DNA of 63,967 nucleotides, taken from Terrimicrobiaceae bacterium (GTDB lineage: Bacteria > Verrucomicrobiota > Verrucomicrobiia > Chthoniobacterales > Terrimicrobiaceae). The position numbers were made by a program, and so were the translations under genes. A model generated the notes under the pieces. That model did no database searches and was not told the origin of the DNA. It saw only the letters and a program-made list of their open reading frames with translations. The DNA is taken from contig JBGTAT010000289.1 in the NCBI GenBank assembly GCA_041749755.1, positions 1-63,967 of the forward strand, written 5' to 3'. Of this stretch, positions 37,238 through 58,915 are shown in pieces (the stretch's first letter is position 1; each line of letters begins with the position of its first letter).

Positions 37238-37302
37238 CAGGCGGTTGCCTTTTCCGCCCGACCATGCCAGCAGACCTTGCAGGCAGCAAAAATCTCTTTC
37301 TC

Positions 37303-40133: not shown

Positions 40134-40218
40134 AGCAGATCTCCAAATTAGCAATTTAACACAAAAGACCCCCTATCAACACAGGGGCTGTGTCCCTTCT
40201 TACTAAATTGTAACAATA

Positions 40219-45352: not shown

Positions 45353-46996
45353 GTGAAGCTGGCCCCGCATTTTTTATTGCCCCACTCAGTCCTGCGTTCC
45401 CGCCTGCGACGAATCATGCGCGGGTACCGCTATCTCAGAAGCACGGGAAGTCTGGGAAAGATAGTGGAAGTTAAGAGTTCTTTGACAACTCAGCCGCTCA
45501 AAGCCCAAGGGAATCCGTCGACATTTGGGCATGAGGCTATTGATTGCTCCAAAGAGAAAATCGTGCGCCAGTATCTCTTGCTCCGCATTGGAGGAGTCAA
45601 CCTGAACCGCGCCTTGTTGTTTTCGCTGGGAAAAAAGGGTGGGACAGTTGCATTTCCGCTGCCGAGAGAGTGGAGGGAGGTCATTGCAAGCCACGGCTTC
45701 AGGGTCGACAACAAGAAGTGCGCCATTCTTTGGTGGGGCTACATCTGTGCACTCTTCCTGTATGGCGTCGCCCAATACATCAAAATTGCTTCGAGCGGAC
45801 TATTTTCGATTTTCAAAGGTTGCCCGGAACCTCGAAGGCACGCCTACTTTGAAAATCTCGGCCTTGAGAACCTTCCGAAGGCTAGCCGAGAGACGGATAG
45901 GGAAAATCTATTTTCATGGTATCTTCATCTGCGGGGGGAACCCGCCGAATTGGATGAAATCCGCCACGGGGTATCGAAGGCAGAACAGGTGTTGGTAGAT
46001 GGGGTTTCGGTGCTGCCCCAACAGGGCCCGTTCCCTTCGAAATGGAGCTTCCATCAGCTTGCCGCATACTGCACTCGTGGCTTCGTTGCGATCTCCGCAG
46101 CAGCCTTCGAGATATTACGAGGCGAGTGGTGGGAAGCTTTGCTCCTCAATCAATCGGCGCTTTTGACGCTGGTGGATGTTTTGCCGAAACACTACCTGGC
46201 TAAGGAATATCTTTTTCACAATTCCACGTGGATGTATCGTCCGCTCTGGACATATGAAGCGGCGCGGCAGGGGGCAAAAATCATCTTTTATTTTTACTCA
46301 ACCAACAGTCAGGGATTTAAGACATCCGCCGGTTACCCCATTTTGAATTATGGGTGGGAAAGCATGACTTGGCCGAACTACCTTGTTTGGGATGAGTATC
46401 AGGCAGACTTTGTCAGGCGTGCGGTTGGTGCATCGGCAAACATTCAAATTGTTGGCCCAATCCCCTTTCAATGCAGTCCCCATCAAATGCCCGAAGTCCA
46501 TGCGGGAGCCGTTGCCATTTTTGACGTTACCCCTCACCGTGATTCTCATTATCAAACTCTCGGGCAGGAAATGGAGTTTTACACGCCGGATGTTTCTCTG
46601 CCCTTCTTGCAGGATATCTGCGACGCTGCAGAAAAGCGCAGGGTAACAATTCTCTGGAAACGCAAACGGAACGTGGGACGGATGGCGCATCCGCGGTATC
46701 GCCACCTGGGGGATCGGCTCGCAGCTAAAAATCATGTCACGATTTTAGATCCGCAAACGTCGGCGGCACAGGTCATAGAGAGGTGTGCGGCCGTCATCTC
46801 GATGCCCTATACCTCAACGGCACTGATTGCCAGGGAACTTGGAAAGCCCACTGCTTACTACGACCCTCTTTCCAGCTTGCAGCGAGATGATCGTGCGGCC
46901 CACGGAATCAAGATTATTCAAGGTCGCCAGGAGTTGGCGAAATGGATGGAAGAGCATTTAAGCTCAGCGAATACCTCAGACCTCATCCATGCTTAA
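45353..46996 (+). CDS. uncharacterised polysaccharide-biosynthesis protein; C-terminal half GT-B-like, motif MPYTSTAL reminiscent of the 'PFTS motif' family
   Basis: 547 aa. No catalytic motif securely recognised. The family assignment is from memory of a named family and was not verified. Start uncertain (GTG 45353 or ATG 45416). Confidence 0.4.
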   Translation: MKLAPHFLLPHSVLRSRLRRIMRGYRYLRSTGSLGKIVEVKSSLTTQPLKAQGNPSTFGHEAIDCSKEKIVRQYLLLRIGGVNLNRALLFSLGKKGGTVAFPLPREWREVIASHGFRVDNKKCAILWWGYICALFLYGVAQYIKIASSGLFSIFKGCPEPRRHAYFENLGLENLPKASRETDRENLFSWYLHLRGEPAELDEIRHGVSKAEQVLVDGVSVLPQQGPFPSKWSFHQLAAYCTRGFVAISAAAFEILRGEWWEALLLNQSALLTLVDVLPKHYLAKEYLFHNSTWMYRPLWTYEAARQGAKIIFYFYSTNSQGFKTSAGYPILNYGWESMTWPNYLVWDEYQADFVRRAVGASANIQIVGPIPFQCSPHQMPEVHAGAVAIFDVTPHRDSHYQTLGQEMEFYTPDVSLPFLQDICDAAEKRRVTILWKRKRNVGRMAHPRYRHLGDRLAAKNHVTILDPQTSAAQVIERCAAVISMPYTSTALIARELGKPTAYYDPLSSLQRDDRAAHGIKIIQGRQELAKWMEEHLSSANTSDLIHA

Positions 46997-47612
46997 CCTT
47001 GTTAGAGAAGAGTGCTTATCCTGGATGGAGGGGGTGATCAGAAATCTTCCCGGACGTGCAGGCCGGTTGGTTCGCAGGGTTTGGTATCAACGTCGGTTTG
47101 CGAGCTGCGGCGAACTTTTTATTGGCGAAGGATGTCGCTTCATCGATCCGGCTTCCATGCGGTTTGAAGGACGCACTCTGATCAACGAGGGGTGCTATTT
47201 TAACGCGCAGGGCGGAATGATTTCGATGGGGGACTTTACCGCAATCAACAATGGGGCCCATATCAATGCTTCCTGTGGAGGTCATATCCGTATTGGATCG
47301 CATTGCCCGATCGGGCCCGGAGTGGTGATGAGAACAGCGAACCACCGCTTCAGTGATGCAGCTGAGTATATTCAGAACCAGGGGCATGACGCTGCAGACA
47401 TCATAATTGAAGATGATTGCTGGCTGGGAGCCAATGTCATTGTTCTTGCCGGGGTTAAGATTGGCCGAGGAGCCGTTGTGGGAGCTGGGGCAGTTGTTTC
47501 GAAGGATGTTCCTGAAATGGCCGTCGTCGTTGGTGTCCCGGCACGTGTTATCAAGTATCGATCAGGAACTTCCGCCCAGGTTGTTCAGAGTCATCCAGAG
47601 TCCTCACGATGA
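46989..47612 (+). CDS. hexapeptide-repeat (LbH) acyltransferase
   Basis: DCWLGANVIVLAGVKIGRGAVVGAGAVVSKDVPEMAVVVGVPARVI. Confidence 0.85.
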   Translation: MLNLVREECLSWMEGVIRNLPGRAGRLVRRVWYQRRFASCGELFIGEGCRFIDPASMRFEGRTLINEGCYFNAQGGMISMGDFTAINNGAHINASCGGHIRIGSHCPIGPGVVMRTANHRFSDAAEYIQNQGHDAADIIIEDDCWLGANVIVLAGVKIGRGAVVGAGAVVSKDVPEMAVVVGVPARVIKYRSGTSAQVVQSHPESSR

Positions 47613-48256
47613 AAAGCTTGGCATCGACGGTTAAAAAAATCTGCTTTCATGCCATGCAGGGGGATCTGAGATATCTCATCTATGAAAAAGCTTCGCTTTT
47701 CATCGGATGGTTGTCCATTTGTCTCAACTGTTGGCTTTACAGGGGCCGGCTCTCAATCTCCTGCCCTTACAAGGTATGGGGCGGCATTCGTTTCCTCATT
47801 TTCGGCCGCGGGTCGATTTCGATAGGAAAGAATTTTCATGCGGTTTCCGACAGGAAAAGATCGTTTTTAACGCTATTTTCTCCGTGCCATCTGACGGTCA
47901 TAGGCGATGGACACATCCTTCTTGGCGAGCATGTAGGCCTCAACGGGACGACGATCGCTGCGCGCGGAACAATAAGTATTGGAGATAATACAATGATCGG
48001 TCCAAATACGATCATTGTGGATCATGACGGCCACCCTTCCTGGCCGCCTGAGGCGCGCTGGTCAACCGGCGGCGCAATAGCTGATATTAAAATCGAGGAA
48101 GATGTTTGGATTGGGATGAACTGCCTCGTCCTTAAAGGAGTTAAAATCGGGAAGGGCTCTGTTATTGCTGCCGGAAGTGTTGTAGTCTCGGATGTTGAGC
48201 CCGCCTGTCTTTATGCAGGCAATCCTGCAAAAAAAATCCGATCGCTTGAAGGGTGA
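47609..48256 (+). CDS. hexapeptide-repeat (LbH) acyltransferase, second copy
   Basis: DVWIGMNCLVLKGVKIGKGSVIAAGSVVVSDVEPACLYAGNPAKKI. N-terminal hydrophobic segment. ATGA overlap with the upstream gene. Confidence 0.85.
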   Translation: MKSLASTVKKICFHAMQGDLRYLIYEKASLFIGWLSICLNCWLYRGRLSISCPYKVWGGIRFLIFGRGSISIGKNFHAVSDRKRSFLTLFSPCHLTVIGDGHILLGEHVGLNGTTIAARGTISIGDNTMIGPNTIIVDHDGHPSWPPEARWSTGGAIADIKIEEDVWIGMNCLVLKGVKIGKGSVIAAGSVVVSDVEPACLYAGNPAKKIRSLEG

Positions 48257-48275
48257 TGGTTTTTCACTTCCCGAC

Positions 48276-49217
48276 ATGGATGCGCCAACCTCCAGTTTAA
48301 AAATGTGCCCCGCGTGCCAGTCGACAAAGGTCAGCTATGCCTCGGACTACCGGTGGGCGCACGATATGTTTTCGGGTCTTGTTCGGCTAGCCTGTGGTTC
48401 ATGCGGGCTTCATTTTGCCGATCCGATGCCCTCATCGCAGGCGTTAGAGGCGTTTAATGCCTCCTACTTTGATAACGCCCACGGTGGGGTAGCGGGCCAC
48501 GCCGAACAGGACGCCTTCTTTTCCGGTCTGGCGGCGCTGCGAGTCGCCCATGTGGAAAGCTATCTTTCCGAGCGCAAGGTTAAGGTGGCGAACATCCTGG
48601 AAATTGGCCCTGGTGCCGGTCATTTCGCTGCCCAGTGGCTCAAGCGGTTTCCAGCCTCAAACTACCGAGCTATCGAAACCGATACAACGTGCCACGCAAA
48701 TTTAAACCGCATGGGTGTACAGCTCCTGGGGGATGGAGAGCAGGCGCTTGATTGTGACTTGGTTATTATATCTCATGTGCTGGAGCACGTGAGTGCCCCC
48801 CAAGACTTCCTCCGCAGCATCCTGCGGAGCCTTCGTCCGGGCGGAGTGATCTTTATTGAAGTTCCCTGCAACGACTGGCAGCACAAGGATCTCGATGAGC
48901 CCCACCTGCTGTTTTTCGATAAAAAGCCGATGGGCCTTCTTCTCGAAAGACTCGGGCTTGTGAACATCCGGCTGTCCTACCACGGCCGGCTGATTTCTGA
49001 TCTGCGGTCGGAAACAACTTTACGGAAGCTCGCCAGAAAAGTTCAGTCCCGTCTCCTGCGGTGGGGGCTGACATTTCCTTTTGCGCACAGCAAGACGGGC
49101 ATGGATGCTTTATCCTCGCCCATGGAACGCGCCATGATCGCCCCGTTCGAGGCGCATGTTGAACAGTCCTCCCCCGCCTGGTGGCTCAGGGCGCTCGCAA
49201 CGAAAAAGAAATTATGA
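48276..49217 (+). CDS. class I SAM-dependent methyltransferase with N-terminal 4-Cys zinc ribbon
   Basis: CPACQ...CGSCG followed by ILEIGPGAGHFAAQW (motif I). Start set at ATG 48276. Confidence 0.8.
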   Translation: MDAPTSSLKMCPACQSTKVSYASDYRWAHDMFSGLVRLACGSCGLHFADPMPSSQALEAFNASYFDNAHGGVAGHAEQDAFFSGLAALRVAHVESYLSERKVKVANILEIGPGAGHFAAQWLKRFPASNYRAIETDTTCHANLNRMGVQLLGDGEQALDCDLVIISHVLEHVSAPQDFLRSILRSLRPGGVIFIEVPCNDWQHKDLDEPHLLFFDKKPMGLLLERLGLVNIRLSYHGRLISDLRSETTLRKLARKVQSRLLRWGLTFPFAHSKTGMDALSSPMERAMIAPFEAHVEQSSPAWWLRALATKKKL

Positions 49218-50005
49218 AAAACATAGATCCTTCCTATCTCGACACTCTTTTTGATCTGCATGGAAAGGTGGTTGTGCTCACCGGGGCGGGCGGTTACCTG
49301 GTTGGTGAGATGGCCCGGGCAGCGGCCTTTGCTGGCATGAAGGTCGTCTGCTGCGACATCCGGATGGATGATGCCAACCGCACGGTTGAAGCCATTTTGT
49401 CCGCAGGGGGCGAGGCTGTTGCCATGGAGTTGGATGTGCGCAAACCAGAGGATTTCCATCGTGCGCTCGCCGAGACGTTAAAAGTGTATGGGCGTCTCGA
49501 TTGTGTGCTTAATGGGGCTGGAAAAAATGCGCCCACACCATTTTTTGAGATTCCGATTGAGGAATGGAATGAGATTCTTGCGATCCAGCTCACCGGGACG
49601 ATGCTGAGCTGCCAGATTTTTGGCCGGCACCTTGTCGAGCAGGGCCATGGTTCGATCGTCAATATCAGCTCCGCTTCGTCCGGGCCTCCGCTCTCCAAGG
49701 CCTTCACCTACTCGGTGGCGAAATCTGGAGTCAAAAACCTCACTCAGAACCTGGCTCGCGAATGGGGGACATGCGGAGTGCGGGTGAATGCTCTGCGCCC
49801 GGGATTTTTCCCAACCGAGTGGTCCCAGCGCAACTTTATTACCCCGGAGCGAGAGGCGGCCATCCTCGGGCATACGGCGATGAAGAGGTACGGGAATCCG
49901 AAGGAGCTCGTTGGGGCGGTGCTCTGGATGTTCTCGAGCGCTGCTTCATTTGTGACGGGAGCGGAGATTGAGGTGGATGGGGGATTTACCGCCATGACGA
50001 TCTGA
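49214..50005 (+). CDS. SDR family oxidoreductase (sugar-acid reductase-like)
   Basis: VVVLTGAGGYLVGEMA, NISSASS and YSVAKSG (YxxxK). ATGA overlap with the upstream gene. Confidence 0.85.
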   Translation: MKNIDPSYLDTLFDLHGKVVVLTGAGGYLVGEMARAAAFAGMKVVCCDIRMDDANRTVEAILSAGGEAVAMELDVRKPEDFHRALAETLKVYGRLDCVLNGAGKNAPTPFFEIPIEEWNEILAIQLTGTMLSCQIFGRHLVEQGHGSIVNISSASSGPPLSKAFTYSVAKSGVKNLTQNLAREWGTCGVRVNALRPGFFPTEWSQRNFITPEREAAILGHTAMKRYGNPKELVGAVLWMFSSAASFVTGAEIEVDGGFTAMTI

Positions 50006-50045
50006 CCCTTCCCAACAAGGCATTTCTTCACACGGCACACGAAAA

Positions 50046-50801
50046 ATGAATTCCAAACCCTGCATCATTATCACCGGAGGCACCCGTGGGATCGGAGCTC
50101 AAATTTCCCGGACGTTCCACGAACAAGGATTCCGGGTCGCCATCGTCGGCAGGAAGGATTCCGGCCTCGCTTCGGATCTGGGTCCGGATGCGAGATTTTG
50201 GGCGACAGACGTCTGCGATGTGGAGCAGGTCGCGCGCATGTGCTCCGAGGTGAACGAGTGGGCAGGCCGGATCGACGGCTTGGTCAACAACGCCGGCATG
50301 TCGGCATGGCGTCCTCTGGAAGCGATCGATGAGGGCTTTTGGCAGGACATGCTGGACACCAACCTCAAGAGCGTTCTCTTCTGCACGCAAAAGGTTGTGC
50401 CCCACCTTTCCGCCGGCGGTTGTGTGATTAATATTTCGAGCCTGGCTGGAAAGCGGGGCAGCGCGAACAATGCGGCCTATTGCGCGGCAAAGTTTGGTGT
50501 CAACGGGATCACGCAAGCGCTGGCCAAAGAGCTCGGTCCCCGGGGCATACGGGTCAATGCAGTCTGCCCGGTTTACATTGAAACAGAGGGGCTGCGCGAG
50601 GCGCTGGCGCAGCCAGAGGCCCCGCCGGCCGGCAAAAATGTCGACGAATACCTGAGGGAATTTGCGGCATCAAATTCCGCCCTGAGAAGGCTTCCGCTGG
50701 CCGAAGAAGTGGCAAAAACCTGCGTTTTTCTTGCATCGGCAGCTGCCTCGGCTATCACCGGTCAGTGCATCAACGTCGATTGTGGAGTTCTCCCCCAGTA
50801 G
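50046..50801 (+). CDS. SDR family oxidoreductase (FabG-like)
   Basis: IIITGGTRGIGAQ, NISSLAG and YCAAKFG. Confidence 0.85.
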   Translation: MNSKPCIIITGGTRGIGAQISRTFHEQGFRVAIVGRKDSGLASDLGPDARFWATDVCDVEQVARMCSEVNEWAGRIDGLVNNAGMSAWRPLEAIDEGFWQDMLDTNLKSVLFCTQKVVPHLSAGGCVINISSLAGKRGSANNAAYCAAKFGVNGITQALAKELGPRGIRVNAVCPVYIETEGLREALAQPEAPPAGKNVDEYLREFAASNSALRRLPLAEEVAKTCVFLASAAASAITGQCINVDCGVLPQ

Positions 50802-50805
50802 GGCC

Positions 50806-51567
50806 ATGGTAAAAATCTCCGTGATCATTCCGGCCCGCATGGCCGCCTCGCGATTCCCCGGGAAACCACTGGTCCAGATTGCCGGCCTGCCGATGATCGA
50901 ACATGTGCGGCGGCGGTCTCTCCTTGCCCCGGGTGTTCACCGGGTTGTCGTCGCGACATGTGACAGGGAGATCATGGATGCTGTCGAGTCTTACGGGGGA
51001 ATCGCCGTCATGACCTCCGACCGCCACGAACGGTGCACCGAGAGGGTGGCTGAAGCAGCAAGGGCTTTTGAATCGGATGTGGTGGTAAACGTTCAGGGCG
51101 ACGAGCCCCTGATGTTTCCGGAGTCCATCACGCAGGCTTCCTCTCCTCTGGTGGAAGCTAGCGGGGTGCATTGCGTGAGCCTGCTTTCGCCGCTCGAGGG
51201 CGATGCGGACCTGCAAAACCCGAATATCGTCAAAGCCGTCTGCCGTCCTCAGGGCGAAGTCCTCTACTTCTCGCGGGCATCTGTCCCGTATTTTCAGAAG
51301 CCCGGAAAAGCACCGGTGTTCCGGGAGACCGGCATCCGGGCGCTGCGGTCAGATTTTCTCCAGCAGTACGCGAGCTTGAGCGAGACCGAGCTCGAGCGGA
51401 TTGAGTCGATCGATATGATGCGGGTGCTCGAGCACGGGTTTAAAATCCTCGGCGTTCCGACCGACTACGCGACAATGGGGGTCGACCATGTCGAAGATGT
51501 GGGCACCGTTGAAAAAATCCTTGCCGGGGACCCGGTGCAGCGGGGTATTTTCGAGTCAATTTTATGA
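50806..51567 (+). CDS. KdsB-like cytidylyltransferase (CMP-ulosonate synthetase family)
   Basis: VIIPARMAASRFPGKPLVQIAGLPMIEHV and NVQGDEPL closely follow the KdsB pattern. Start set at ATG 50806. Confidence 0.8.
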   Translation: MVKISVIIPARMAASRFPGKPLVQIAGLPMIEHVRRRSLLAPGVHRVVVATCDREIMDAVESYGGIAVMTSDRHERCTERVAEAARAFESDVVVNVQGDEPLMFPESITQASSPLVEASGVHCVSLLSPLEGDADLQNPNIVKAVCRPQGEVLYFSRASVPYFQKPGKAPVFRETGIRALRSDFLQQYASLSETELERIESIDMMRVLEHGFKILGVPTDYATMGVDHVEDVGTVEKILAGDPVQRGIFESIL

Positions 51568-52601
51568 TTCGCTCCCTGGTTATCGGCTACGGATACATGG
51601 GGGAAATCCGCGCGCGCGTCGCAGACGAACTCGACGGATTCGAGCTGTCCGGGATCTGTGATCCTGTTGCAACGGCCGAACAAACCGGCCGGCCCTGCCC
51701 TCACTTCACCGACTTCCGCGAGGCCCTAAATGAGGTGCGCCCGGACGTCGCATTTGTCTGCACTCCCAACAACCTCTCTCCTGAGGTTTCCGTGCTCGCG
51801 CTGGATCTCGGATGCCATGTCTTCTGCGAGAAGCCGCCGGGACGGACGGTCGAGGATATCGAACGGATCATCGCGGCCGAGCGCGCTCATCCCGGGCTCA
51901 AGGTGATGTTCGGCTTCAACCACCGCCACCATCCCGCGATCCTTGAAGCGAAGTCGATCGTCCGGGGCGGCCGGCTTGGGAAAATCCTTTGGGTGCGCGG
52001 GGTCTATGGGAAATCCGGCGGTACCGGGCGCGGGTTTGAGCAATCCTGGCGCAACGACCCCTCCGTTTCCGGAGGGGGCATCCTGCTCGACCAAGGGATC
52101 CACATGCTCGACCTTTTCCGGCTTTTTTGCGGAGATTTTGAGTCTGTTCAGGGACTCATGGGAACCACGCACTGGAACGTGCCTGTGGAGGACAACGCCA
52201 TGGTTTTGCTTCGCAGCGAGGAGGGGGTGATGGCGCAGCTGCACTCCTCCGCGACACTTTGGAAGCACACCTTTGAGCTCGAGATCGGTTTGGAGGAGGG
52301 ATACATGGTCGCGCACGGGCTCCTTTCGAAAACCGGAAGTTACGGACGGGAGACGCTCGTGGTCGGACGCCGGGTGAACGAGAGCGATTCCGATCGGGTC
52401 GCCGGCCGGCCGGGCGAAGAAATTTCGTACTTCAACGACGACCTTTCCTGGAGATCTCAGGTCGAGGAGCTTGGGCGCTGCATCCTTGAGAACCAGCCAG
52501 TGCAGGACAGCTCGACAAACGATGCGCTCCAGGTCATGAAGCTGATCGATCAGGTTTACCGCCAATCTGGACGCCAGCTCGGCTCCACCACCACGTCATG
52601 A
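51564..52601 (+). CDS. Gfo/Idh/MocA family oxidoreductase
   Basis: N-terminal Rossmann and the VFCEKPPG (EKP) motif. ATGA overlap. Confidence 0.85.
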   Translation: MIRSLVIGYGYMGEIRARVADELDGFELSGICDPVATAEQTGRPCPHFTDFREALNEVRPDVAFVCTPNNLSPEVSVLALDLGCHVFCEKPPGRTVEDIERIIAAERAHPGLKVMFGFNHRHHPAILEAKSIVRGGRLGKILWVRGVYGKSGGTGRGFEQSWRNDPSVSGGGILLDQGIHMLDLFRLFCGDFESVQGLMGTTHWNVPVEDNAMVLLRSEEGVMAQLHSSATLWKHTFELEIGLEEGYMVAHGLLSKTGSYGRETLVVGRRVNESDSDRVAGRPGEEISYFNDDLSWRSQVEELGRCILENQPVQDSSTNDALQVMKLIDQVYRQSGRQLGSTTTS

Positions 52602-53614
52602 AGACCATCGTATCAGACCAGCACCTCCCGGAGGGGGAGATCAAGCCGTCCCGGCAGGCAGCGGAGTTCCGGGCAATGCTCGACAGCGAATTTCAGCAGT
52701 TCCTGGCCACCGGGGTCCCGCTTGCTGCCATCGCCTGTCCGGGCTGCGGGGGAGATGAACCAGCGCCGGCCTTTGTCAAATCCGGCCTCAGCTATCAGGA
52801 ATGCCGGATCTGCGCCTCGGTCTACGCAAGCCCTCGGCCAGCAAGCCCGGATGTGGAAAGATTTTATCGGACCTCCGAAGCGGTCGCCTACTGGCACAAT
52901 GTGCTGCTTCCTGATACCCGGGCTGCCCGGCTCTCAAAGATCGTCGAGCCCCGTGCCCGATGGGTGCTAGGCACGGCGGATCGCTACCTCCCATCGCTGA
53001 CAAGGATCCTCGACATCGGGCAGCATTCCGGGCTTCTCATCGCTGAGCTTCTGCAATCCCGATCCCAACATTTTAATATCACGGTCGCCGGGCAGCTTGC
53101 GGACCTCGAAGGAGGCTGCCCGGATGGCCTCGCGATCGCGCCCACGCCCCTCGAAAAATTGGGCGAGCTGGGGCCTGTGCAACTCGTGCTCGCCTTCGAC
53201 GCTTTAGATCGCGCGCCCGACTTGGGGGCTCTGATGCGCGCCGCCCACTCTGTGCTCGAGCCCCAAGGACTTCTCCTGGCGGGATCGACGCTGATCAGCG
53301 GGTTTGACCTCCAGACCCTTTGGGACGGCTCCGAGAGCATCTCCCCTCCAGAGCGGCTCAACCTCCTCACCGAGAAGGGGGTTCTTTCTTTATGTGAACG
53401 CCATGGGTTTGAAGTGCTGGAGTTCAGCACCCCAGGAGTATTTGATGTGGAGATCGTCCAGCGTGCGATCCTCGCCCATCCCGAGGAGCCGTGGCCGCGG
53501 TTCCTTCGCTACCTGACGACGCGCTGCGAGCCCGAAGTCCTGGAGGGGTTCCAGGAATTTCTTCAAAAATACCGGCTCAGCTCATTCGCGCGTCTGGCGC
53601 TCAGAAAGCTTTAA
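52598..53614 (+). CDS. class I SAM-dependent methyltransferase with N-terminal 4-Cys zinc ribbon (paralogous architecture to 48276..49217)
   Basis: CPGCGG...CRICAS followed by ILDIGQHSGLLIAEL. ATGA overlap. Confidence 0.75.
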   Translation: MKTIVSDQHLPEGEIKPSRQAAEFRAMLDSEFQQFLATGVPLAAIACPGCGGDEPAPAFVKSGLSYQECRICASVYASPRPASPDVERFYRTSEAVAYWHNVLLPDTRAARLSKIVEPRARWVLGTADRYLPSLTRILDIGQHSGLLIAELLQSRSQHFNITVAGQLADLEGGCPDGLAIAPTPLEKLGELGPVQLVLAFDALDRAPDLGALMRAAHSVLEPQGLLLAGSTLISGFDLQTLWDGSESISPPERLNLLTEKGVLSLCERHGFEVLEFSTPGVFDVEIVQRAILAHPEEPWPRFLRYLTTRCEPEVLEGFQEFLQKYRLSSFARLALRKL

Positions 53615-53618
53615 TCTG

Positions 53619-54413
53619 ATGTTGGCCTCAAAAATCAAATCCAAGCTGCGCTCCGGAGAGGTGACGCTTGGCAGCTGGATGTCGATGGGTCATGTCTCGA
53701 TCGCAGAAATTCTTGCCTCGACCGGCTTCGACTGGGTTGTCATTGAAACCGAGCACACCGCCATCGATGTGAGCGAGGTCCTCCGGCTGATCATGGCGAT
53801 CGAAGGCCGGGGCTGCGTGCCGCTGGTGAGGCTCGCATGGAACGATCCCATTCAGGCGAAGGCCGTGCTCGACTCCGGGGCGGCCGGCGTCATCGTGCCG
53901 ATGGTCAATTCAAAAGCGGATGCCGAACTTGCCGTCAAAGGGGCGAAATACCCGCCGCTGGGGTTTCGCGGCGTCGGGCTTGCCCGCGCTCAGGGCTATG
54001 GGAGAAATTTTGATGCCTATGTCGAGGCCGCCAACAGGGACTCGCTTCTGATCCTCCAGATCGAACACATCGATGCGGTGGAAAATATCGAGGAGATTGT
54101 CTCTGTTGAGGGGATTGACGGCACCTACATCGGACCCTATGACCTCTCGATGTCGATGGGCCTTCCGGGGCAGATCCACCATCCGGATGTCAGGCTGGCG
54201 ATGGACCGCGTGCTCCGCGCGACGCTGGCCCGCGGGCTGGCACCCGGAATCCATCTTGTGCACCCGACGGACGCCTCGCAGAAGCTCGGCGAGTTTGTCG
54301 CGCAAGGCTACCAGTTCATCGCGCTGGGAACCGACATCCTGTTTCTCGGCGACAGCGCGCGCAACCTGTTCCAGACATGCGCGGGAGTGCTCAACGATGC
54401 TGGAAGCCGCTAA
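53619..54413 (+). CDS. HpcH/HpaI family class II (pyruvate-dependent) aldolase
   Basis: LGSWMSMGHVSIAEILASTGFDWVVIETEHTAIDV...VRLAWNDP...IVPMVNS...IQIEH...GPYDLS follows the HpcH/HpaI pattern. Confidence 0.82.
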   Translation: MLASKIKSKLRSGEVTLGSWMSMGHVSIAEILASTGFDWVVIETEHTAIDVSEVLRLIMAIEGRGCVPLVRLAWNDPIQAKAVLDSGAAGVIVPMVNSKADAELAVKGAKYPPLGFRGVGLARAQGYGRNFDAYVEAANRDSLLILQIEHIDAVENIEEIVSVEGIDGTYIGPYDLSMSMGLPGQIHHPDVRLAMDRVLRATLARGLAPGIHLVHPTDASQKLGEFVAQGYQFIALGTDILFLGDSARNLFQTCAGVLNDAGSR

Positions 54414-55041
54414 GGTCATCATCTTCGATTTCGATGGCGTCCTGGTGGAATCGAATGACATCAAGACGGCGGCATTCGAGCATGTTTTCTCCCGCTTTCC
54501 CGGGCATCAGGAAGAAATGATGGCATTTCACCGGGAGCAGGTTTCGGCATCCCGATTCATCAAGTTTGACCGCCTTCTGGCGCTTGCCGGAAGATCAGGC
54601 GATATCAATTTGCGCGCCGAGCTCGCGGAAGAATTTTCTTCCTATGTTGCCGCGAAGATCATCCAGTGCCCGTGGGTTGAAGGTGCTGAGGACCTTCTGG
54701 CCTGGCTGGGAAACCGGATCCCGCTCTACCTGGCATCGGTTACCCCGGAGGCTGAGCTGGAGGGAATCCTGAAAGGAAGGGGGCTCGTAAAGCGGTTTCG
54801 CAAAATCTACGGGTGCCCCCCCTGGAAAAAGCCGGACGCGGTCCGGGATGTATTGGCGAGGGAGTCGATCCAACCCGAGCAGGCGGTGCTCATCGGAGAT
54901 TCCGCCGGGGATCAGCGTGCGGCTGAGGAGACAGGGATCCGATTCATTGCGCGAAATAGCGGGTTGGAATTTGACCGGCCACACCCGCTCACATTTTCCA
55001 ATCTGAACGAAATTAAAAAATTTATGGAATCCATGCTATGA
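54397..55041 (+). CDS. HAD-IA family hydrolase (phosphatase)
   Basis: VIIFDFDGVLVES (DxDG), later LIGDSAGD. Start set at ATG 54397, overlapping the aldolase 3' end by 17 nt. Confidence 0.82.
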   Translation: MLEAAKVIIFDFDGVLVESNDIKTAAFEHVFSRFPGHQEEMMAFHREQVSASRFIKFDRLLALAGRSGDINLRAELAEEFSSYVAAKIIQCPWVEGAEDLLAWLGNRIPLYLASVTPEAELEGILKGRGLVKRFRKIYGCPPWKKPDAVRDVLARESIQPEQAVLIGDSAGDQRAAEETGIRFIARNSGLEFDRPHPLTFSNLNEIKKFMESML

Positions 55042-55991
55042 GCGATCTGGTTTTTGTCGGTCTTTCCACATTTGCAGCTGAATCCAGAGAACCTCTGGAG
55101 CTGCTCGAGCAGTCCGGGTTCCCATTCCGCGTGCATTCAACAGGCAAGCGGATTACCGGCGAGGAACTGGTTGCTGCAGCAAGCGATGCCGCGGTCATCA
55201 TCGCCGGAGTCGAGCCCTACGACGCCGCGCTCCTGGCGCAGCTCCCCCGCCTGAAATGCATCTCACGATGTGGAGTGGGGGTTGATGCCATCGATTTACC
55301 GGACGCGCGCCGCAGGGGGATCGCCGTCGCTAACACGCCGGAGATCCCGGCCCATGCAGTAGCTGAGCTTGCCATCGCCATGTTCCTCTCGCTGAGCAGA
55401 AATTTTCCCCGCCAAATGCATCTGATGGCTGCCAGGCGCTGGGAGCGGGTGCCTTCGCACCTCCTGATGGGGAGGACGGTCGGACTGATCGGGTTTGGGA
55501 GGATCGGCCGTCGGGTTGCCGGTCTCTGCCAGGCATTTGGCTGTCAGGTGCTGGCCGCCGATCCCCAGGTCGAACCATCGACGGCCGAGTCGCTAGGGGT
55601 GCGCCTGGTTTCGACGGAGGACCTATTGGCATCCTCGGACATCGTCTCCATCCACGCCTCAAAGTCGGGGACGGGTGGAGCCCTGATCGGGCCCCGGGAA
55701 ATGGCCGCCATGAAGCCGGGTGCAATCCTGGTCAACCTGTCTCGCGGCGACATGGTCGATGAGGCGGCTCTTTTGGATGCGCTGAATTCCGGGCATCTGT
55801 CCGCCGCCGGGCTGGACGTTTTCCCTTCCGAGCCATACGCCGGCCCCCTCTGTGACTTGCAGCAAGTGCTTCTCACCCCGCACTCTGCAACGCTTCCGCG
55901 GGAAACCCGCGTCGCCATGGAGATGCAATGCGTAACGAACGGCATTGATTTCCTGAGGGGCTCCCTTGACCCTGCCTGCCGGGTCTGTTAA
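55038..55991 (+). CDS. D-isomer-specific 2-hydroxyacid dehydrogenase (phosphoglycerate-dehydrogenase-like)
   Basis: GRTVGLIGFGRIGRRVA, NLSRGDMVDE and LTPHSAT catalytic pattern. ATGA overlap. Confidence 0.85.
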   Translation: MSDLVFVGLSTFAAESREPLELLEQSGFPFRVHSTGKRITGEELVAAASDAAVIIAGVEPYDAALLAQLPRLKCISRCGVGVDAIDLPDARRRGIAVANTPEIPAHAVAELAIAMFLSLSRNFPRQMHLMAARRWERVPSHLLMGRTVGLIGFGRIGRRVAGLCQAFGCQVLAADPQVEPSTAESLGVRLVSTEDLLASSDIVSIHASKSGTGGALIGPREMAAMKPGAILVNLSRGDMVDEAALLDALNSGHLSAAGLDVFPSEPYAGPLCDLQQVLLTPHSATLPRETRVAMEMQCVTNGIDFLRGSLDPACRVC

Positions 55992-56006
55992 AAACACGGC
56001 CCTTCA

Positions 56007-56627
56007 ATGAACTCCACCTCCTCTTCTACGTTTGCCGAGCAATACATTCGCGATGCTCAGGAAATCCTTTCAAAAATCGATACTGCAGCCATTGAAAAAA
56101 TGGCAGTGCTCCTGAGTGAGCTCCGCGAGCGGGGCGGGAGGTTGTTTCTGATCGGGGTGGGCGGCGGCGCCGGCCATGCCGGGCACGCCGTCAATGATTT
56201 CCGCAAGCTCGCGAAGATCGAATCCTACTCGCCGAGCGACAACATCAGCGAGCTGACGGCACGCACAAACGATGAGGGCTGGGAGACGACCTATGCGGCG
56301 TGGCTCGAGGTCAGCCGGCTCAACAAAAATGACATGCTGATGGTCTTTTCTGTCGGCGGAGGAAATTTGGAGCACAACATCAGCCCGAACATCGTGCGAG
56401 CGGTCCAGTACGCCAAGGAGGTCGGCGCCGGGGTGATCGGGATCGTGGGGCGCGATGGGGGATATACCGCCTCCGTAGCGGATGCCTGCGTCATCGTTCC
56501 GACGCTCGACCCGGATTATGTGACCCCTCATACCGAATCGTTCCAGGCGCTCGTCTGGCACCTGCTCGTTTCCGACCCGCGGCTGATGCAGGCCAAGAAC
56601 AAGTGGGAGTCGAGCGCAACCGTCTGA
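56007..56627 (+). CDS. SIS domain sugar-phosphate isomerase (GmhA-like)
   Basis: GGRLFLIGVGGGAGHAGHAVNDF...MVFSVGGG...GIVGRDGG is the phosphoheptose-isomerase-type pattern. No CBS domains. Confidence 0.8.
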   Translation: MNSTSSSTFAEQYIRDAQEILSKIDTAAIEKMAVLLSELRERGGRLFLIGVGGGAGHAGHAVNDFRKLAKIESYSPSDNISELTARTNDEGWETTYAAWLEVSRLNKNDMLMVFSVGGGNLEHNISPNIVRAVQYAKEVGAGVIGIVGRDGGYTASVADACVIVPTLDPDYVTPHTESFQALVWHLLVSDPRLMQAKNKWESSATV

Positions 56628-56637
56628 ATGCCACCCG

Positions 56638-57354
56638 ATGAAAACCGTTAACGATCTCAAGGTAAAATTATTCGCCGATGGCGCCGACCGCCAGACCATG
56701 CTCGACATGGCCGCCAAACCCTTCATCAAGGGCCTGACAACCAATCCCACCCTGATGCGCGTGGCTGGAGTCTCAGACTATCCGGCTTTTGCCAAGGACA
56801 TCCTCCGCTCGATCACGGACAAGCCGATTTCGTTTGAAGTGTTTTCCGATGATTTTGACGAGATGGAAAAGCAGGCGTTGGAGATCGCCTCCTGGGGGGC
56901 AAACGTTTTTGTAAAAATCCCCGTGACAAACACGAAGGGGGAGGAGGCCACAAACCTGATTGCCCGCCTGGCCGGGCAGAGTGTTCAACTCAACGTGACG
57001 GCGATTCTCACCCTCGACCAGGTCAAAAATGTCGTGGCCTCCCTTCGCTCAGAGATCCCAAGTTTTGTGTCCGTATTTGCGGGTCGCATTGCCGATACCG
57101 GCCGGGACCCCGTGCCGATGATGGCCCAGGCGGTCGAGATGCTGAGACCCTTGGAAAAATCCGAACTGATCTGGGCCAGCCCGAGGGAGCTGCTAAACAT
57201 TTTTCAGGCCGATGAGGTCGGCTGCCATGTCATCACCGCCACCAGCGACGTCCTGAAGAAGCTGGAGCTGGTCGGGAAAGATCTGGCCGATTACTCGCTC
57301 GACACGGTAAAAATGTTTTACCGGGACGCTCAGGCGGCTGGTTACCAGCTCTAA
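56638..57354 (+). CDS. transaldolase family protein, short FSA/TalC type
   Basis: LFADGAD...GLTTNPTL...NVFVKIPVT (Schiff-base Lys context). 238 aa. Confidence 0.82.
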   Translation: MKTVNDLKVKLFADGADRQTMLDMAAKPFIKGLTTNPTLMRVAGVSDYPAFAKDILRSITDKPISFEVFSDDFDEMEKQALEIASWGANVFVKIPVTNTKGEEATNLIARLAGQSVQLNVTAILTLDQVKNVVASLRSEIPSFVSVFAGRIADTGRDPVPMMAQAVEMLRPLEKSELIWASPRELLNIFQADEVGCHVITATSDVLKKLELVGKDLADYSLDTVKMFYRDAQAAGYQL

Positions 57355-57395
57355 CAGCGAGCCGGCGGGCACTCTGCAGGGTGCTGTGAAATGCG

Positions 57396-58910
57396 ATGAC
57401 AAAAAATCAGTACCGGATTCTTTGTGACGCATGCGACAGCATCCTGAATAATCAAGACCTGCCTTCTCACGCCAAAGCCGTTTCGTTCCTTCATGTCATC
57501 CGGGAACATCCGGTATTTCTATCGCAGTATGAGCCCCTTTTTGAAGGTTCTGCGAATACTGGAAGAGGGCCCGGCATCAAGGCCCTGGGAAAGCTGCTAT
57601 TTTTCTTCATCCGTTGCGGCATTTGCAATTGGGCTGCAACTCTCAAATCCAGAAGCCTTGTTCCAATAGATGTTTTATTCGTATCCCACCTGGTCGATCG
57701 GGAGCACATAAAAGCTGCTTCCGATTTTTATTTTTCGAACATCCCTCAGTTCCTGTCAAAAAATGACACAACGAGCGCGGTCGCGCTTATTGACCATACG
57801 AAGTCCGTCGTCAGGGCAGAGAAGAGGGTTTTTTCACATGATGGAATTCCAAGGATCATTCTGGGTCCGCATAAAAACCTTTTTAGCGCACTGGCAGAGA
57901 TTCCGCGCCTCTTGCGCGTCCGAAGTCGAATAAGCCGAATGATGCTGAACGGGCCGGCCGGCCTCGCCGGGCGTATCGCTCGCGGAGCGCAGCGGGAAAC
58001 AATTTCTTCGAGCACACTACTAAATCTTGGCGTTGCAGCGCAGGTGCAAACCCTAGTCAAAAAGCTAAGGCCCCGGGCCATCGTCGTCACGTACGAGGGG
58101 CATGCTTGGGAGCGCCTGGTTTTTGCGGCAGCAAAAACGGCAAGATCGGAAATTCTATGTGTCGGCTATCACCACACGAATCCCCTGCCGCTCCAGCATT
58201 CGCTCAACCGGAATTTGGGGTACCCATACGATCCGGACCTGGTGCTCGAATCCGGCGAGGCGGGCTTTGAGTACTGGAAAAATCCGGGAGACGATCGGGT
58301 AAAAAATGTGGTTATCGCCGGTTCCTGCCGAAGGCCCGTGGCGGCGCCCGGGCAAGCGCAGCGGGAGGGGCGAGGGTCATCGGAAAAATTGACGTGTCTC
58401 GTTATGCCGGAGGGAATCGAGACTGAGTGCAGGACCCTGATCGGCTTTGCGAGGGAATGCGCCGCGGCGGCACCGGAAATCCGCTTCGTAATACGGATGC
58501 ATCCGGTCCTTCCGTTTTCAAAATTTTCTTCAGCAAATCCTTCCTACAAAAGTCTTCCTGAGAATGTTTTTCTTTCGGACACCTCATTGCAAAACGATTT
58601 GAATCTTGCCCAATGGGTGCTTTACCGGGGGACGAGCGCCGTGATTCAGGCGGTGCTTTCGGGCGTGCAGCCTTTGTATCTCGACCGTGAAGGGGAAATG
58701 CCAATCGACCCACTCTACGGCCTTTCCGCATGGAAAAAAACCATCGGATCTCCGGAGACGTTTTGCAAGATCATCCGCACCTACAGCAATGCCCGAGACG
58801 ATCAGGAACAGGAAGAGGTTCGGACTGCTCAGGATTTCTGCGAAAAGTATTTCACGCCCATTGATTTCGAGGCCATCAAACGGCACTTGGCCGCAGGGGC
58901 AGCCAGTTGA
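57396..58910 (+). CDS. uncharacterised 504-aa protein, GT-B-like C-terminal half (candidate glycosyl/ulosonate transferase)
   Basis: No motif securely recognised. C-terminal pattern (FVIRMHP...WVLYRGTSAVIQAVLSGVQPLYLD) resembles Rossmann-type sugar-transferase folds. Confidence 0.4.
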   Translation: MTKNQYRILCDACDSILNNQDLPSHAKAVSFLHVIREHPVFLSQYEPLFEGSANTGRGPGIKALGKLLFFFIRCGICNWAATLKSRSLVPIDVLFVSHLVDREHIKAASDFYFSNIPQFLSKNDTTSAVALIDHTKSVVRAEKRVFSHDGIPRIILGPHKNLFSALAEIPRLLRVRSRISRMMLNGPAGLAGRIARGAQRETISSSTLLNLGVAAQVQTLVKKLRPRAIVVTYEGHAWERLVFAAAKTARSEILCVGYHHTNPLPLQHSLNRNLGYPYDPDLVLESGEAGFEYWKNPGDDRVKNVVIAGSCRRPVAAPGQAQREGRGSSEKLTCLVMPEGIETECRTLIGFARECAAAAPEIRFVIRMHPVLPFSKFSSANPSYKSLPENVFLSDTSLQNDLNLAQWVLYRGTSAVIQAVLSGVQPLYLDREGEMPIDPLYGLSAWKKTIGSPETFCKIIRTYSNARDDQEQEEVRTAQDFCEKYFTPIDFEAIKRHLAAGAAS

Positions 58911-58915
58911 TCCAG

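Follow-up and report, generated by a model that had tools for sequence, protein, structure and literature searches.

The window analysed here, a 63,967-nucleotide stretch of DNA from a Terrimicrobiaceae bacterium, carries a cassette of 14 genes (~12 kb, positions 46989-58910) that is common to genomes of more than 10 phyla, with a near-invariant gene order. We consider it about an even bet (probability ~0.5) that this cassette is horizontally mobile and that its enzymes make a Kdo-like 2-ulosonic acid, modify it, link it to CMP and transfer it, without a PEP-dependent synthase of the KdsA/NeuB type. The sugar probably joins the ABC-transporter-type, pseudaminic-acid-containing polysaccharide encoded by the rest of the locus.

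Extent and gene content of the cassette

ORF calls and Pfam searches confirmed ten co-directional genes on the + strand at 49214-57354, as an earlier note on this DNA had claimed, and profile-HMM annotation upheld the family given there to each of the ten proteins, every Pfam match lying far above the gathering score. The run had also been described as mostly overlapping. Only 4 of its 9 junctions overlap, while the remaining 5 are gaps of 4-40 nt, so that tightly packed is the better description. Nor did the proposed ten-gene extent hold: synteny in other genomes indicated a bigger conserved unit, 46989-58910. Its additional genes encode two acetyltransferases, another Zn-ribbon methyltransferase and a GT-B-fold protein of 504 aa. 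Since this order and content recur in unrelated genomes, the gene run is not a product of chance. The genes of the cassette and its two flanking genes are as follows:

45353..46996, +, PFTS-motif polysaccharide biosynthesis protein (TIGR04417, 342 bits, cut-off 100)
46989..47612, +, Hex1, hexapeptide-repeat O-acetyltransferase (Pfam Hexapep)
47609..48256, +, Hex2, second hexapeptide-repeat acetyltransferase (profile search)
48192..49217, +, MT23a, Zn-ribbon SAM methyltransferase (Methyltransf_23, 1.5e-15; CPAC and CGSC motifs)
49214..50005, +, SDR1, sugar-acid-type short-chain dehydrogenase (adh_short_C2, 3e-50)
50046..50801, +, SDR2, second short-chain dehydrogenase (adh_short_C2, 1e-57)
50806..51567, +, KdsB-type CMP-ulosonate cytidylyltransferase (CTP_transf_3, 5e-44)
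51564..52601, +, Gfo/Idh/MocA NAD(P) sugar oxidoreductase, GFO (GFO_IDH_MocA N-terminal 2e-18, C-terminal 8e-27)
52598..53614, +, MT23b, Zn-ribbon SAM methyltransferase (Methyltransf_23, 7e-8)
53619..54413, +, class II (metal-dependent) HpcH/HpaI-family 2-oxoacid aldolase (HpcH_HpaI, 3e-38)
54397..55041, +, HAD-IA phosphatase (HAD_2, 9e-17; DxDG and GDxxxD motifs)
55038..55991, +, PGDH-like D-2-hydroxyacid dehydrogenase, 2HADH (2-Hacid_dh_C, 5e-52)
56007..56627, +, GmhA-like SIS_2 sugar-phosphate isomerase, SIS (SIS_2, 6e-12)
56638..57354, +, staph-type transaldolase, TAL (TAL_FSA, 2e-38; TIGR02134, 342 bits, cut-off 282)
57396..58910, +, GT-B-fold protein, 504 aa, candidate CMP-sugar transferase (AlphaFold2 and Foldseek)
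58907..59824, +, GT2 glycosyltransferase (Glycos_transf_2, 2e-19)

Related loci occurred in several variants. Where variant A has TAL, SIS, GFO, 2HADH and the HAD phosphatase, variants B and C have a KdsA, KdsC and CBS set, homologues of which were absent from the 64-kb window. In variant D, GFO, SIS, phosphatase and 2HADH are contiguous, and an inositol-monophosphatase-family enzyme takes the place of the HAD phosphatase.

The KdsB-like identity proposed for the cytidylyltransferase was confirmed by curated models (NF009905, 275.8, cut-off 255; TIGR00466, 173.9, cut-off 155.2), and every one of its PDB matches was a KdsB. The PseF fusion encoded at 40219 is a separate enzyme. The aldolase is 38.5% identical to E. 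coli HpaI and scored below the equivalog cut-offs of HpaI, GarL and RhmA. Its assignment to the class II aldolases stood on alignment: H46, R71, E149 and D175 correspond to HpaI H45, R70, E149 and D175, and this His/Arg/Glu/Asp set is kept in all 53 of 53 module homologues. For the 2HADH, the top PDB matches were the PGDH entries 1ygy and 3ddn (193 bits). The transaldolase had been called FSA/TalC-type, but it reached only 71 bits against that equivalog (cut-off 246) and belongs instead to the staph type; in most loci of variant A, its gene adjoins that of SIS. The SIS protein (56-83% identical in variant A loci) scored 53 bits against the gmhA model, whose cut-off is 209; aligned to GmhA, it keeps a His...Asp pair equivalent to H61/E65, and the phosphate loop is changed.

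Among the putative tailoring enzymes, SDR1 gave as its top NCBIfam matches D-mannonate oxidoreductase, gluconate 5-dehydrogenase and KduD, each below cut-off; its counterparts share 60-77% identity with it in variant A loci and ~61% in variant B. SDR2 is always paired with it, upstream of the cytidylyltransferase. The characterised enzymes nearest to the Gfo protein, namely levoglucosan dehydrogenase, inositol dehydrogenase and aldose-aldose oxidoreductase, are all distant. MT23b, with Zn-ribbon motifs CPGC...CRIC at residues 47-72, is syntenic in all variant A loci. MT23a is likewise syntenic across variant A (44-50% identity), and its translation may actually start downstream of 48256. Hex1, which resembles WbbJ/WcaF and falls below both cut-offs, is a conserved cassette member, syntenic in 10 variant A loci; Hex2 occurs in some homologous loci only (seen in L011 and L014). 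On the flanks, the gene of the PFTS-motif protein often adjoins the cassette upstream (homologues in L003, L009, L020, L072, L135, L142, L150, L151 and L153), and the GT2 gene often comes next after the GT-B gene in related loci (52-58% identity in L072, L074, L112 and L025).

The GT-B-fold protein belongs to a new family and had no sequence match in Pfam, NCBIfam or PDB. Its AlphaFold2 model (pLDDT 88, pTM 0.90) retrieved GT-B enzymes in Foldseek, a polysialyltransferase among them, and the family has invariant residues at E234-G235-H236 and R367/H369-P370. The protein is a candidate transferase of the CMP-sugar.

Distribution and coupling of the genes

The co-occurrence expected for the block in other genomes was found, and its synteny is near-invariant. 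Aldolase orthologues with 67-79% identity and shared gene order occurred in 16 species genomes, from Desulfobacterota, Chloroflexota, Thermotogota, Chlorobiota, Gemmatimonadota, Nitrospirota and Bacteroidota as well as Alpha-, Beta- and Gammaproteobacteria. Tier-2 loci, in which the aldolase is 44-50% identical, retain KdsB, HpcH, 2HADH and HAD and nothing more. One of them (L027) is a self-contained four-gene operon in the order 2HADH-HpcH-KdsB-HAD, another (L021) consists of five genes, and no NeuB gene was present within 10 kb of the tier-2 operons. The aldolases of variants A and D and of tier 2 form one clade, to which the 2HADH is coupled in all three settings. Four functions were found to be obligatorily coupled: a PGDH-like 2HADH, the HpcH aldolase clade, a sugar-phosphate phosphatase and a KdsB-type cytidylyltransferase.

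Since tier-1 and tier-2 loci were collected with the aldolase as query, the only unbiased test of coupling is given by loci anchored on the GT-B protein, which represent few independent lineages. In these, wherever the 2HADH was present this aldolase was present each time, and KdsA in none of them. A KdsB-like gene lies beside the GT-B gene in 18 of the 23 loci with a GT-B homologue; 3 of the 5 others have Pse/PFTS genes immediately upstream. In variants B and C a genuine Kdo8P synthase accompanies the GT-B and KdsB-like pair, an independent pointer to a CMP-ulosonic acid. That the same pair occurs with a Kdo8P synthase in place of the aldolase/2HADH set also supports a non-canonical route to a CMP-activated Kdo-like sugar.

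Two observations weigh against this preferred explanation. The variant A cytidylyltransferase outscores the KdsA-associated type on canonical KdsB models, and its substrate could therefore be genuinely Kdo-like, i.e. 3-deoxy. In addition, variant B combines a Kdo8P synthase with an HpcH aldolase and the same SDR pair, indicating that the HpcH enzyme can be accessory there.

Proposed route and competing explanations

Under the preferred explanation, the transaldolase would supply a ketose phosphate, e.g. sedoheptulose-7-P, which the GmhA-like isomerase would convert to an aldose phosphate. We infer that the 2HADH creates the alpha-keto-acid function by oxidizing a 2-hydroxy acid and that the aldolase either makes or re-sets the C3-C4 bond. 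The phosphatase would then remove the terminal phosphate, the SDR pair, two methyltransferases and acetyltransferases would tailor the product, the KdsB-type enzyme would form the CMP-sugar and the GT-B protein would transfer it. Two versions may be envisaged. In version (a), the 2HADH would oxidize glycerate or 3-phosphoglycerate to hydroxypyruvate, which the aldolase would join to the aldose phosphate; hydroxypyruvate is a documented nucleophile for HpcH-family aldolases, with aldoses, erythrose and glyceraldehyde among them, as the partner (PMC7610986). In version (b), Gfo would oxidize the aldose phosphate and the 2HADH would convert the resulting aldonate phosphate to a 2-keto-aldonate phosphate, with C3/C4 then re-set by the aldolase through a retro-aldol and an aldol step. 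Version (a) reduces Gfo to mere tailoring, while version (b) gives the aldolase an ad hoc editing role. Both predict a product with a 3-hydroxyl, as in Ko, rather than a 3-deoxy sugar.

The earlier note had drawn a strict analogy with Kdo synthesis, in which the HpcH enzyme condenses the SIS-derived aldose phosphate with pyruvate to a 3-deoxy-2-ulosonate phosphate, HAD dephosphorylates this and the KdsB-like enzyme activates it, leaving Gfo, 2HADH, SDRs and methyltransferases for tailoring only. That scheme is sustained in part by the KdsB cut-offs, the GT-B context and the lack of KdsA from the 64-kb window. Further in its favour, the aldolase is catalytically intact by its residues and pyruvate is the native donor of its family, KdsA and this aldolase clade are complementary among GT-B-anchored loci, the cytidylyltransferase exceeds both the KdsB equivalog cut-off and the score of the KdsA-linked type, and an isomerase and a phosphatase are present (cf. 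KdsD and KdsC). The one-to-one analogy itself was not supported, or is at least incomplete, as 2HADH and Gfo have no role in it. The PGDH-like 2HADH, found wherever the aldolase clade is, including the four-gene operon, is left without natural chemistry, reduction of the 2-keto group would remove the anomeric centre needed by a KdsB-type enzyme, and the contiguous GFO-SIS-phosphatase-2HADH block of variant D goes unexplained. A pyruvate aldolase that replaces KdsA to give a 3-deoxy product is thus possible, if unlikely, and not the best fit. A rather doubtful reading is that of a purely oxidative route, equivalent to version (b) on its own, from ketose phosphate to aldose phosphate (SIS), aldonate phosphate (Gfo), 2-keto-aldonate phosphate (2HADH) and free 2-ulosonic acid (phosphatase), with the aldolase and SDR pair merely re-setting stereocentres. 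It gives each variant A-specific gene (TAL, SIS, GFO, 2HADH, HAD) a natural role, and the 2HADH enzymes PdxB, SerA and KguD work on omega-phospho-aldonates. A precedent for the epimerisation exists in the SDR/reductase pair EpaA/EpaB, which epimerises the penultimate carbon of pseudaminic acid (PMC12053666). The route would also account for variant B, with its aldolase and SDR triad on top of a KdsA route; the variant B aldolase is of a separate lineage, however, and says little on variant A. Moreover, the oxidative route makes dispensable an aldolase that is universal in 2HADH-type cassettes, including minimal operons without SIS and Gfo, and we know of no HpcH enzyme with epimerase action.

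Two further readings were considered. N-glyceroyl and di-O-methylglyceroyl pseudaminic acids are known (PMC5378307; bioRxiv 10.64898/2026.04.20.719630), and the cassette usually lies beside Pse genes (PseI, PseG/H, PFTS protein), which fits the alternative of the earlier note that 2HADH, HAD and methyltransferases make a glyceroyl or other hydroxy-acid substituent for the neighbouring pseudaminic acid, with no second sugar formed. Because the KdsB-type cytidylyltransferase is universal in the cassette and no acyl-activating enzyme (CoA ligase, ACP or ATP-grasp) is conserved with it, we regard this as very improbable; the tier-2 operons, moreover, are free-standing and NeuB-free within 10 kb, and in variants B and C the same position is taken by a genuine Kdo8P synthase. 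There is next to no likelihood that the genes represent either a nucleotide-heptose pathway already known or an operon for sugar-acid catabolism that lies in a glycan locus by accident. A GmhA-like SIS and a HAD phosphatase are present, and both aldolase and SDR1 show similarity to enzymes that degrade glucarate, rhamnonate and KDG; however, the cut-offs of all catabolic equivalogs were missed, and synteny with cytidylyltransferase, methyltransferases and GT-B is invariant in polysaccharide loci of many phyla. The nucleotide-heptose route was rejected, as the module has no heptose kinase, GmhB, NTP_transferase or adenylyl-/guanylyltransferase and its isomerase falls far short of the GmhA cut-off.

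Our literature search returned no description of the module. The cassette is worth experimental work.

The cassette and its surrounding locus

The earlier note had placed a co-directional sugar module of ten genes at 49214-57354, and ten plus-strand ORFs were found there. The genes are tightly packed, although not mostly overlapping as it described: four junctions overlap, and at the other five the genes are 4-40 nt apart. Its family assignments were borne out for all ten genes by Pfam (E 7e-8 to 1e-57), namely two classical SDRs, CTP_transf_3, Gfo/Idh/MocA, Methyltransf_23 (with a CxxC...CxxC motif at the N-terminus), HpcH_HpaI, HAD, D-2-hydroxyacid dehydrogenase (2HADH), SIS_2 and TAL_FSA. 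The block, whose conservation had been proposed as a check, recurs elsewhere in identical order wherever the flank suffices, running hexapeptide acetyltransferase, methyltransferase, (hexapeptide acetyltransferase), SDR1, SDR2, KdsB, Gfo, methyltransferase, HpcH, HAD, 2HADH, SIS, transaldolase and a 504-aa protein. Since the same order is found in other genomes, we take the real unit, here called the cassette, to be 46989-58910.

Features of the locus
32528: PseB-like gene, upstream of the cassette
37264: aldo-keto reductase, upstream of the cassette
38296: second, divergent NeuB-like synthase (NeuB 152 bits, PseI 124 bits, each under cut-off)
39342: SDR, upstream of the cassette
40219: fusion of a PseF-type cytidylyltransferase and a class III aminotransferase
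42216: PseG/PseH fusion, upstream of the cassette
43742: PseI (505 bits)
Between the Pse genes and the ten-gene run: PFTS-motif protein (TIGR04417), two hexapeptide acetyltransferases, second Zn-ribbon methyltransferase
49214-57354, plus strand: ten-gene run
Downstream, in order: 504-aa ORF (57396-58910), GT2, epimerase, DUF218, GT4, initiating sugar transferase
Further upstream of the Pse set: ABC-transporter genes and RgpF-type transferase

The ABC-transporter genes and the RgpF-type transferase identify the setting as an ABC-transporter-type polysaccharide locus. We considered the NeuB-like gene at 38296 as the missing synthase and rejected it, because it does not accompany the cassette in other loci. 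The CTP_transf_3, aldo-keto reductase and SDR set at 37264-42246 resembles EpaA/EpaB, which convert Pse to 8-epi-Pse (PMC12053666), and by analogy these genes may yield a modified nonulosonic acid or a second one. The PFTS-motif protein (TIGR04417, 45353-46996) recurs between Pse genes and the cassette in homologous loci (L003, L009, L020, L072, L135, L142 and L150) and may be a Pse transferase; BLASTP detected no similarity between it and the 504-aa protein. Two sulfate-activation genes (18899-22188) directly precede the polysaccharide locus: one is CysD-like (PAPS_reduct family), the other a CysN/CysC fusion, and together they yield PAPS. The glycan of the locus may be sulfated. Between the sulfate-activation and the ABC-transporter/glycan genes lies a YoeB-like type II toxin gene (24288-24686) with an adjoining small ORF (24771-25127). 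Two large ORFs, 35204-37237 (677 aa) and 1490-3172 (560 aa), have no Pfam match; the former lies inside the glycan locus and has no NCBIfam match either.

Homologues of the aldolase number in the thousands; for the best 120 clusters, identity to the enzyme of the window is 71-85%. Scanning one genome per species, we found orthologues of 67-79% identity in 16 genomes, below which identity drops to 50%. The hosts are Desulfobacterales, Chloroflexota, a betaproteobacterium, Caulobacter, Smithella, Thermotogae and a gammaproteobacterium, together with Chlorobium, Gemmatimonadota, Steroidobacteraceae, Nitrospiraceae, Chitinophagales and Methylobacter. Within 46989-59824 of the window, GC content is 0.59-0.63 in the core (SDR2 to SIS) and 0.49-0.53 in the acetyltransferases, the GT-B gene that encodes the 504-aa protein, and GT2. 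High cross-phylum identity and a core whose GC differs from that of its flanks indicate horizontal spread, and the GC mosaic fits an origin by modular, horizontal assembly. Promoter and terminator scans gave counts no better than chance, and an ARAGORN tRNA-like call on the minus strand at 52740-52832, with a four-base anticodon and lying within the methyltransferase CDS, is almost certainly a false positive.

Cassette variants and enzyme families

A metagenome scan anchored on the GT-B family returned 532 relatives, and 80 loci were kept. Four architectures were distinguished, in each of which the last two genes are a KdsB-like gene and then the GT-B gene.

Architectures of the cassette
Variant A: window type
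Variant B: two proteins without a family, genuine Kdo8P synthase, CBS protein, HpcH aldolase, SDR1, SDR2, KdsB
Variant C: variant B set minus the aldolase and the SDRs
Variant D: HpcH, KdsB, Gfo, (methyltransferase), SIS, 2HADH; inositol-monophosphatase-family phosphatase instead of HAD

Where 6 kb or more of sequence preceded the GT-B gene (26 loci), the counts were 9 of variant B, 9 of A or D, 2 of C, 1 with KdsB only and 5 with none of these; all nine A or D loci carried HpcH and 2HADH and lacked KdsA. Where 8 kb or more preceded it (23 loci), a KdsB-like gene was present in 18, and Pse/PFTS genes lay directly upstream in 3 of the other 5. These neighbours thus tie the GT-B family to gene sets that produce CMP-ulosonates, and the linkage provides independent support for reading the window cassette as a CMP-ulosonic acid pathway. 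Loci of a second tier, with aldolases 44-50% identical to that of the window, retain only KdsB, HpcH, 2HADH and HAD; one (L027) is a self-contained four-gene operon, and another (L021) has an added extended-SDR epimerase. The 2HADH is present wherever the aldolase clade of variants A, D and tier 2 occurs.

In one variant A locus (handles L003 and L004, 12363-14796), a PIG-L deacetylase, an ATP-grasp ligase and an inositol-monophosphatase-family gene are inserted between 2HADH and SIS, which suggests further lineage-specific tailoring. The variant B Kdo8P synthase exceeds both equivalog cut-offs. Sister cassettes with such a paralogous Kdo8P synthase above the equivalog cut-offs are L072 (Chlorobium phaeovibrioides, GCA_003970105.1), L073, L125, L126, L135 and L142, some of them having an inserted HpcH aldolase and SDR pair. 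The cassette-type enzyme bears the motif KDCRSS, where the E. coli enzyme reads KANRSS. Cassette-type KdsA is accompanied by a stand-alone CBS protein and by two conserved proteins of ~277 and ~234 aa; these two matched no family.

Curated NCBIfam cut-offs were passed by the cytidylyltransferase and the transaldolase and missed by the aldolase, 2HADH, isomerase and HAD protein; NCBIfam holds no curated model specific to cassette members. The aldolase scored 131.6 bits against PF03328 and shares 38.5% identity with E. coli HpaI. Its active site, which the earlier note had singled out for alignment, is intact: H46, R71, E149 and D175 align with HpaI H45, R70, E149 and D175, and the catalytic His, Arg, Glu and Asp are invariant in 53/53 cassette aldolases (27 of variant A, 4 of D, 8 of tier 2 and 14 of B). 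The TIM-barrel family, the catalytic His/Arg and the Glu/Asp metal ligands are shared with catabolic HpaI/HpcH, GarL and RhmA (YfaU) and with biocatalytic hydroxyketoacid aldolases. Unlike the catabolic enzymes, however, the cassette clade is coupled to KdsB and 2HADH in biosynthetic glycan loci, and a role in sugar-acid catabolism was rejected since the equivalog cut-offs of HpaI (210 vs 369), GarL (182 vs 407) and RhmA (162 vs 441) were all missed. In a neighbour-joining tree the A, D and tier-2 aldolases formed one clade apart from catabolic HpaI, GarL and RhmA, and the variant B aldolases were a separate lineage that grouped with aldolases of other contexts. No HpcH enzyme is known to us from the biosynthesis of nucleotide sugars.

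The KdsB-like label given to the cytidylyltransferase held at the level of curated sequence models, with scores of 151 bits for PF02348 (cut-off 22.6), 275.8 for NF009905 (cut-off 255) and 173.9 for TIGR00466 (kdsB; cut-off 155.2); all 13 PDB matches were to KdsB, and the PseF model gave E = 4e-5. Within variant A identity was 69%; types B and C shared 59%, A and D 44%, and A and B/C ~36%. On canonical KdsB models, the KdsA-linked B and C types are outscored by those of A, D and tier 2.

The 2HADH scored 238 bits (cut-off 454) against the PGDH (SerA) model TIGR01327, which includes regulatory domains missing in the cassette enzyme. Among PDB entries its best matches are phosphoglycerate dehydrogenases, and glyoxylate/hydroxypyruvate reductases come next. 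SerA, PdxB and KguD are enzymes of this family that convert a phosphorylated 2-hydroxy acid to an alpha-keto acid, and the Epd/PdxB pair offers a precedent for the sequence aldose phosphate, aldonate phosphate, 2-keto acid phosphate. The cassette 2HADH shares their family, reaches no equivalog cut-off, and differs in that it would feed a cytidylyltransferase instead of a transaminase. The isomerase matched only SIS_2/GmhA models, with 53 bits against gmhA (TIGR00441; cut-off 209); aligned to GmhA, its His...acid pair is kept and its phosphate-binding loop is remodelled. The phosphatase is of the HAD-IA type (41 bits against the phosphoglycolate phosphatase model, cut-off 180). The transaldolase, described earlier as FSA/TalC-type, does belong to the TAL_FSA family but fell below the FSA/TalC equivalog (71.3 vs 245.95), scoring instead 341.9 bits with the staph-type model TIGR02134 (cut-off 281.95). 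The nearest named families of SDR1, D-mannonate oxidoreductase, gluconate 5-dehydrogenase and KduD, oxidise sugar acids, acting on the penultimate carbon. Epimerisation of a side-chain carbon may be the task of the SDR pair, for which EpaA/EpaB (PMC12053666) offer a precedent by analogy. For the methyltransferases and acetyltransferases we presume a role in decorating the sugar.

Comparison with characterised pathways and possible routes

Our main reading, to which we assign a probability of about 0.8, is that the cassette makes a CMP-activated Kdo-like acid without KdsA or NeuB. The families, intact catalytic residues, synteny and coupling are established, whereas every substrate named below is one that we infer. 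With the CMP-Kdo pathway (KdsD, KdsA, KdsC, KdsB) the cassette shares a sugar-phosphate isomerase, a phosphatase, a KdsB-model cytidylyltransferase and, at the end, a predicted dedicated transferase; in sister variants B and C this GT-B partner occurs alongside a real Kdo8P synthase. It differs in having a GmhA-type SIS_2 isomerase without CBS, a phosphatase that is HAD-IA (in variant D, inositol monophosphatase) and not KdsC, and, as obligatory extras, a PGDH-like dehydrogenase, a Gfo oxidoreductase and a class II aldolase. As the earlier note had stated, of the canonical set only the KdsB type is present. KdsA, a KdsD-type SIS with CBS and a KdsC-type HAD-IIIA/YrbI are lacking. No KdsA (DAHP_synth_1) was found in the 64-kb window by tblastn with a cassette-type KdsA query, nor in variant A or D loci, and the window has no KdsC or CBS homologues.

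The pathways to Pse, Leg and Neu, with their late epimerases (EpaA/EpaB, AciE), end in a CMP-activated alpha-keto acid sugar, as proposed for the cassette, which adjoins a pseudaminic acid gene set and whose paired oxidoreductases could epimerise as EpaA/EpaB do (PMC12053666). In contrast to these pathways, the cassette has no NeuB-family synthase, aminotransferase or N-acetyltransferase, and its cytidylyltransferase is KdsB-type, not PseF/NeuA-type. The nucleotide-heptose pathway (GmhA, HldE or HddA, GmhB, HddC) likewise has a GmhA-like isomerase, which in the cassette stands next to a transaldolase that could supply sedoheptulose-7-P, and a phosphatase is common to both. A known route of this kind, named earlier as an outcome that would overturn the proposal, was nevertheless rejected: the gmhA score falls far short (53 vs 209), and neither a kinase nor an NDP-forming nucleotidyltransferase (NTP_transferase) is present in the cassette, activation being of the CMP type. 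Judged by sequence, then, the cassette belongs to neither the Kdo nor the nucleotide-heptose pathway and appears to resemble the Kdo and nonulosonate pathways in outline. The earlier statement that the gene combination matches no characterised pathway was upheld, in that the gene set is undescribed in the literature searched by full text. A study of N-glyceroyl-Pse in Tannerella reports the glyceroyl group without named genes (PMC5378307). SugarBase lists unassigned C10 CMP-ulosonic acids in Magnetospirillum (bioRxiv 10.64898/2026.04.20.719630), which are probably not products of the cassette because they are di-N-acetylated.

The earlier note had proposed a strict analogue of the Kdo pathway, a pyruvate aldolase replacing KdsA/NeuB to yield a 3-deoxy product. 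This holds insofar as it provides roles for the isomerase, aldolase, phosphatase and cytidylyltransferase, but it offers nothing sensible for the 2HADH to do, an enzyme that accompanies the A/D/tier-2 aldolase clade wherever this occurs, and reduction of the 2-keto group would destroy the anomeric centre needed by the cytidylyltransferase. We therefore regard the strict analogy as unlikely. Even odds seem appropriate for the proposal that the 2HADH instead creates the alpha-keto acid, which could occur by either of two routes. By the most economical reading of the four-gene core, the 2HADH would oxidise glycerate or 3-PG to hydroxypyruvate, which the aldolase would add to an aldose phosphate made by the isomerase; in favour of this route, HpcH-family members accept hydroxypyruvate with polyhydroxy aldehydes and aldoses (PMC7610986). 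Alternatively, a ketose phosphate would be converted to an aldose phosphate (SIS), an aldonate phosphate (Gfo), a 2-keto-aldonate phosphate (2HADH) and finally the free acid (phosphatase), leaving the aldolase as a C3/C4 editor. The latter route accounts for the contiguous Gfo-SIS-phosphatase-2HADH block of variant D and for the replacement of KdsA, KdsC and CBS by the 2HADH set in variant A. Both routes predict a product with a 3-hydroxyl. In variant B, Kdo8P synthase and HpcH aldolase occur together with the same SDR pair, and the aldolase there must have a role other than skeleton building or build a second acid.

The 504-aa protein and the meaning of the cassette

All homologues of the 504-aa protein are annotated as hypothetical. 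No sequence match was found in Pfam, NCBIfam or a PDB profile search, with nothing at E <= 0.001 in Pfam, the KpsS/KpsC capsule-synthesis family included, and the fold search alone was informative. An AlphaFold2 model built from 36 homologues (pLDDT 88, pTM 0.90) matched GT-B transferases and epimerases in Foldseek at E 1e-9 to 1e-7, with target-normalised TM-scores of ~0.41-0.59 among the matches listed; the matches included glycosyltransferases, UDP-GlcNAc 2-epimerases and MurG, with a polysialyltransferase only at rank 50. The predicted structure is thus a two-Rossmann-domain GT-B fold. Invariant in the family are E234-G235-H236 and R367/H369-P370. Bacterial sialyl- and Kdo-transferases have conserved D/E-D/E-G and HP motifs, and we presume, as a lead, that the invariant residues resemble these two bacterial sialyltransferase motifs. 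By the comparisons with Pfam, NCBIfam and PDB, this would be a transferase of an undescribed GT-B family.

To our knowledge, every pathway to Kdo and to sialic, pseudaminic and legionaminic acids uses a PEP-dependent KdsA/NeuB-type synthase. Tentatively, the cassette may represent a pathway that moves horizontally and occurs in more than 10 phyla, leading to a new class of CMP-activated 3-hydroxy 2-ulosonic acid (hept-, oct- or higher-carbon, O-methylated and O-acetylated), which a class II aldolase would build from hydroxypyruvate and an aldose phosphate without a PEP-dependent synthase, and which new GT-B 'ulosonyl-transferases' would install beside pseudaminic acid. The interest of the cassette rests on its wide spread and strong conservation and on the undescribed sugar and new transferase family that it implies. 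Mass-spectrometric surveys have reported CMP-linked alpha-keto acids without assignment (bioRxiv 10.64898/2026.04.20.719630). If true, this proposal would provide enzymes for chemo-enzymatic ulosonic acid synthesis and a function for the orphan 504-aa GT-B family, possibly for the PFTS-motif protein as well. It would also mean that many environmental bacteria carry an acidic sugar not yet described, and that CMP-ulosonic surface sugars have a third biosynthetic logic, a class II aldolase with a 2HADH, conserved across phyla.
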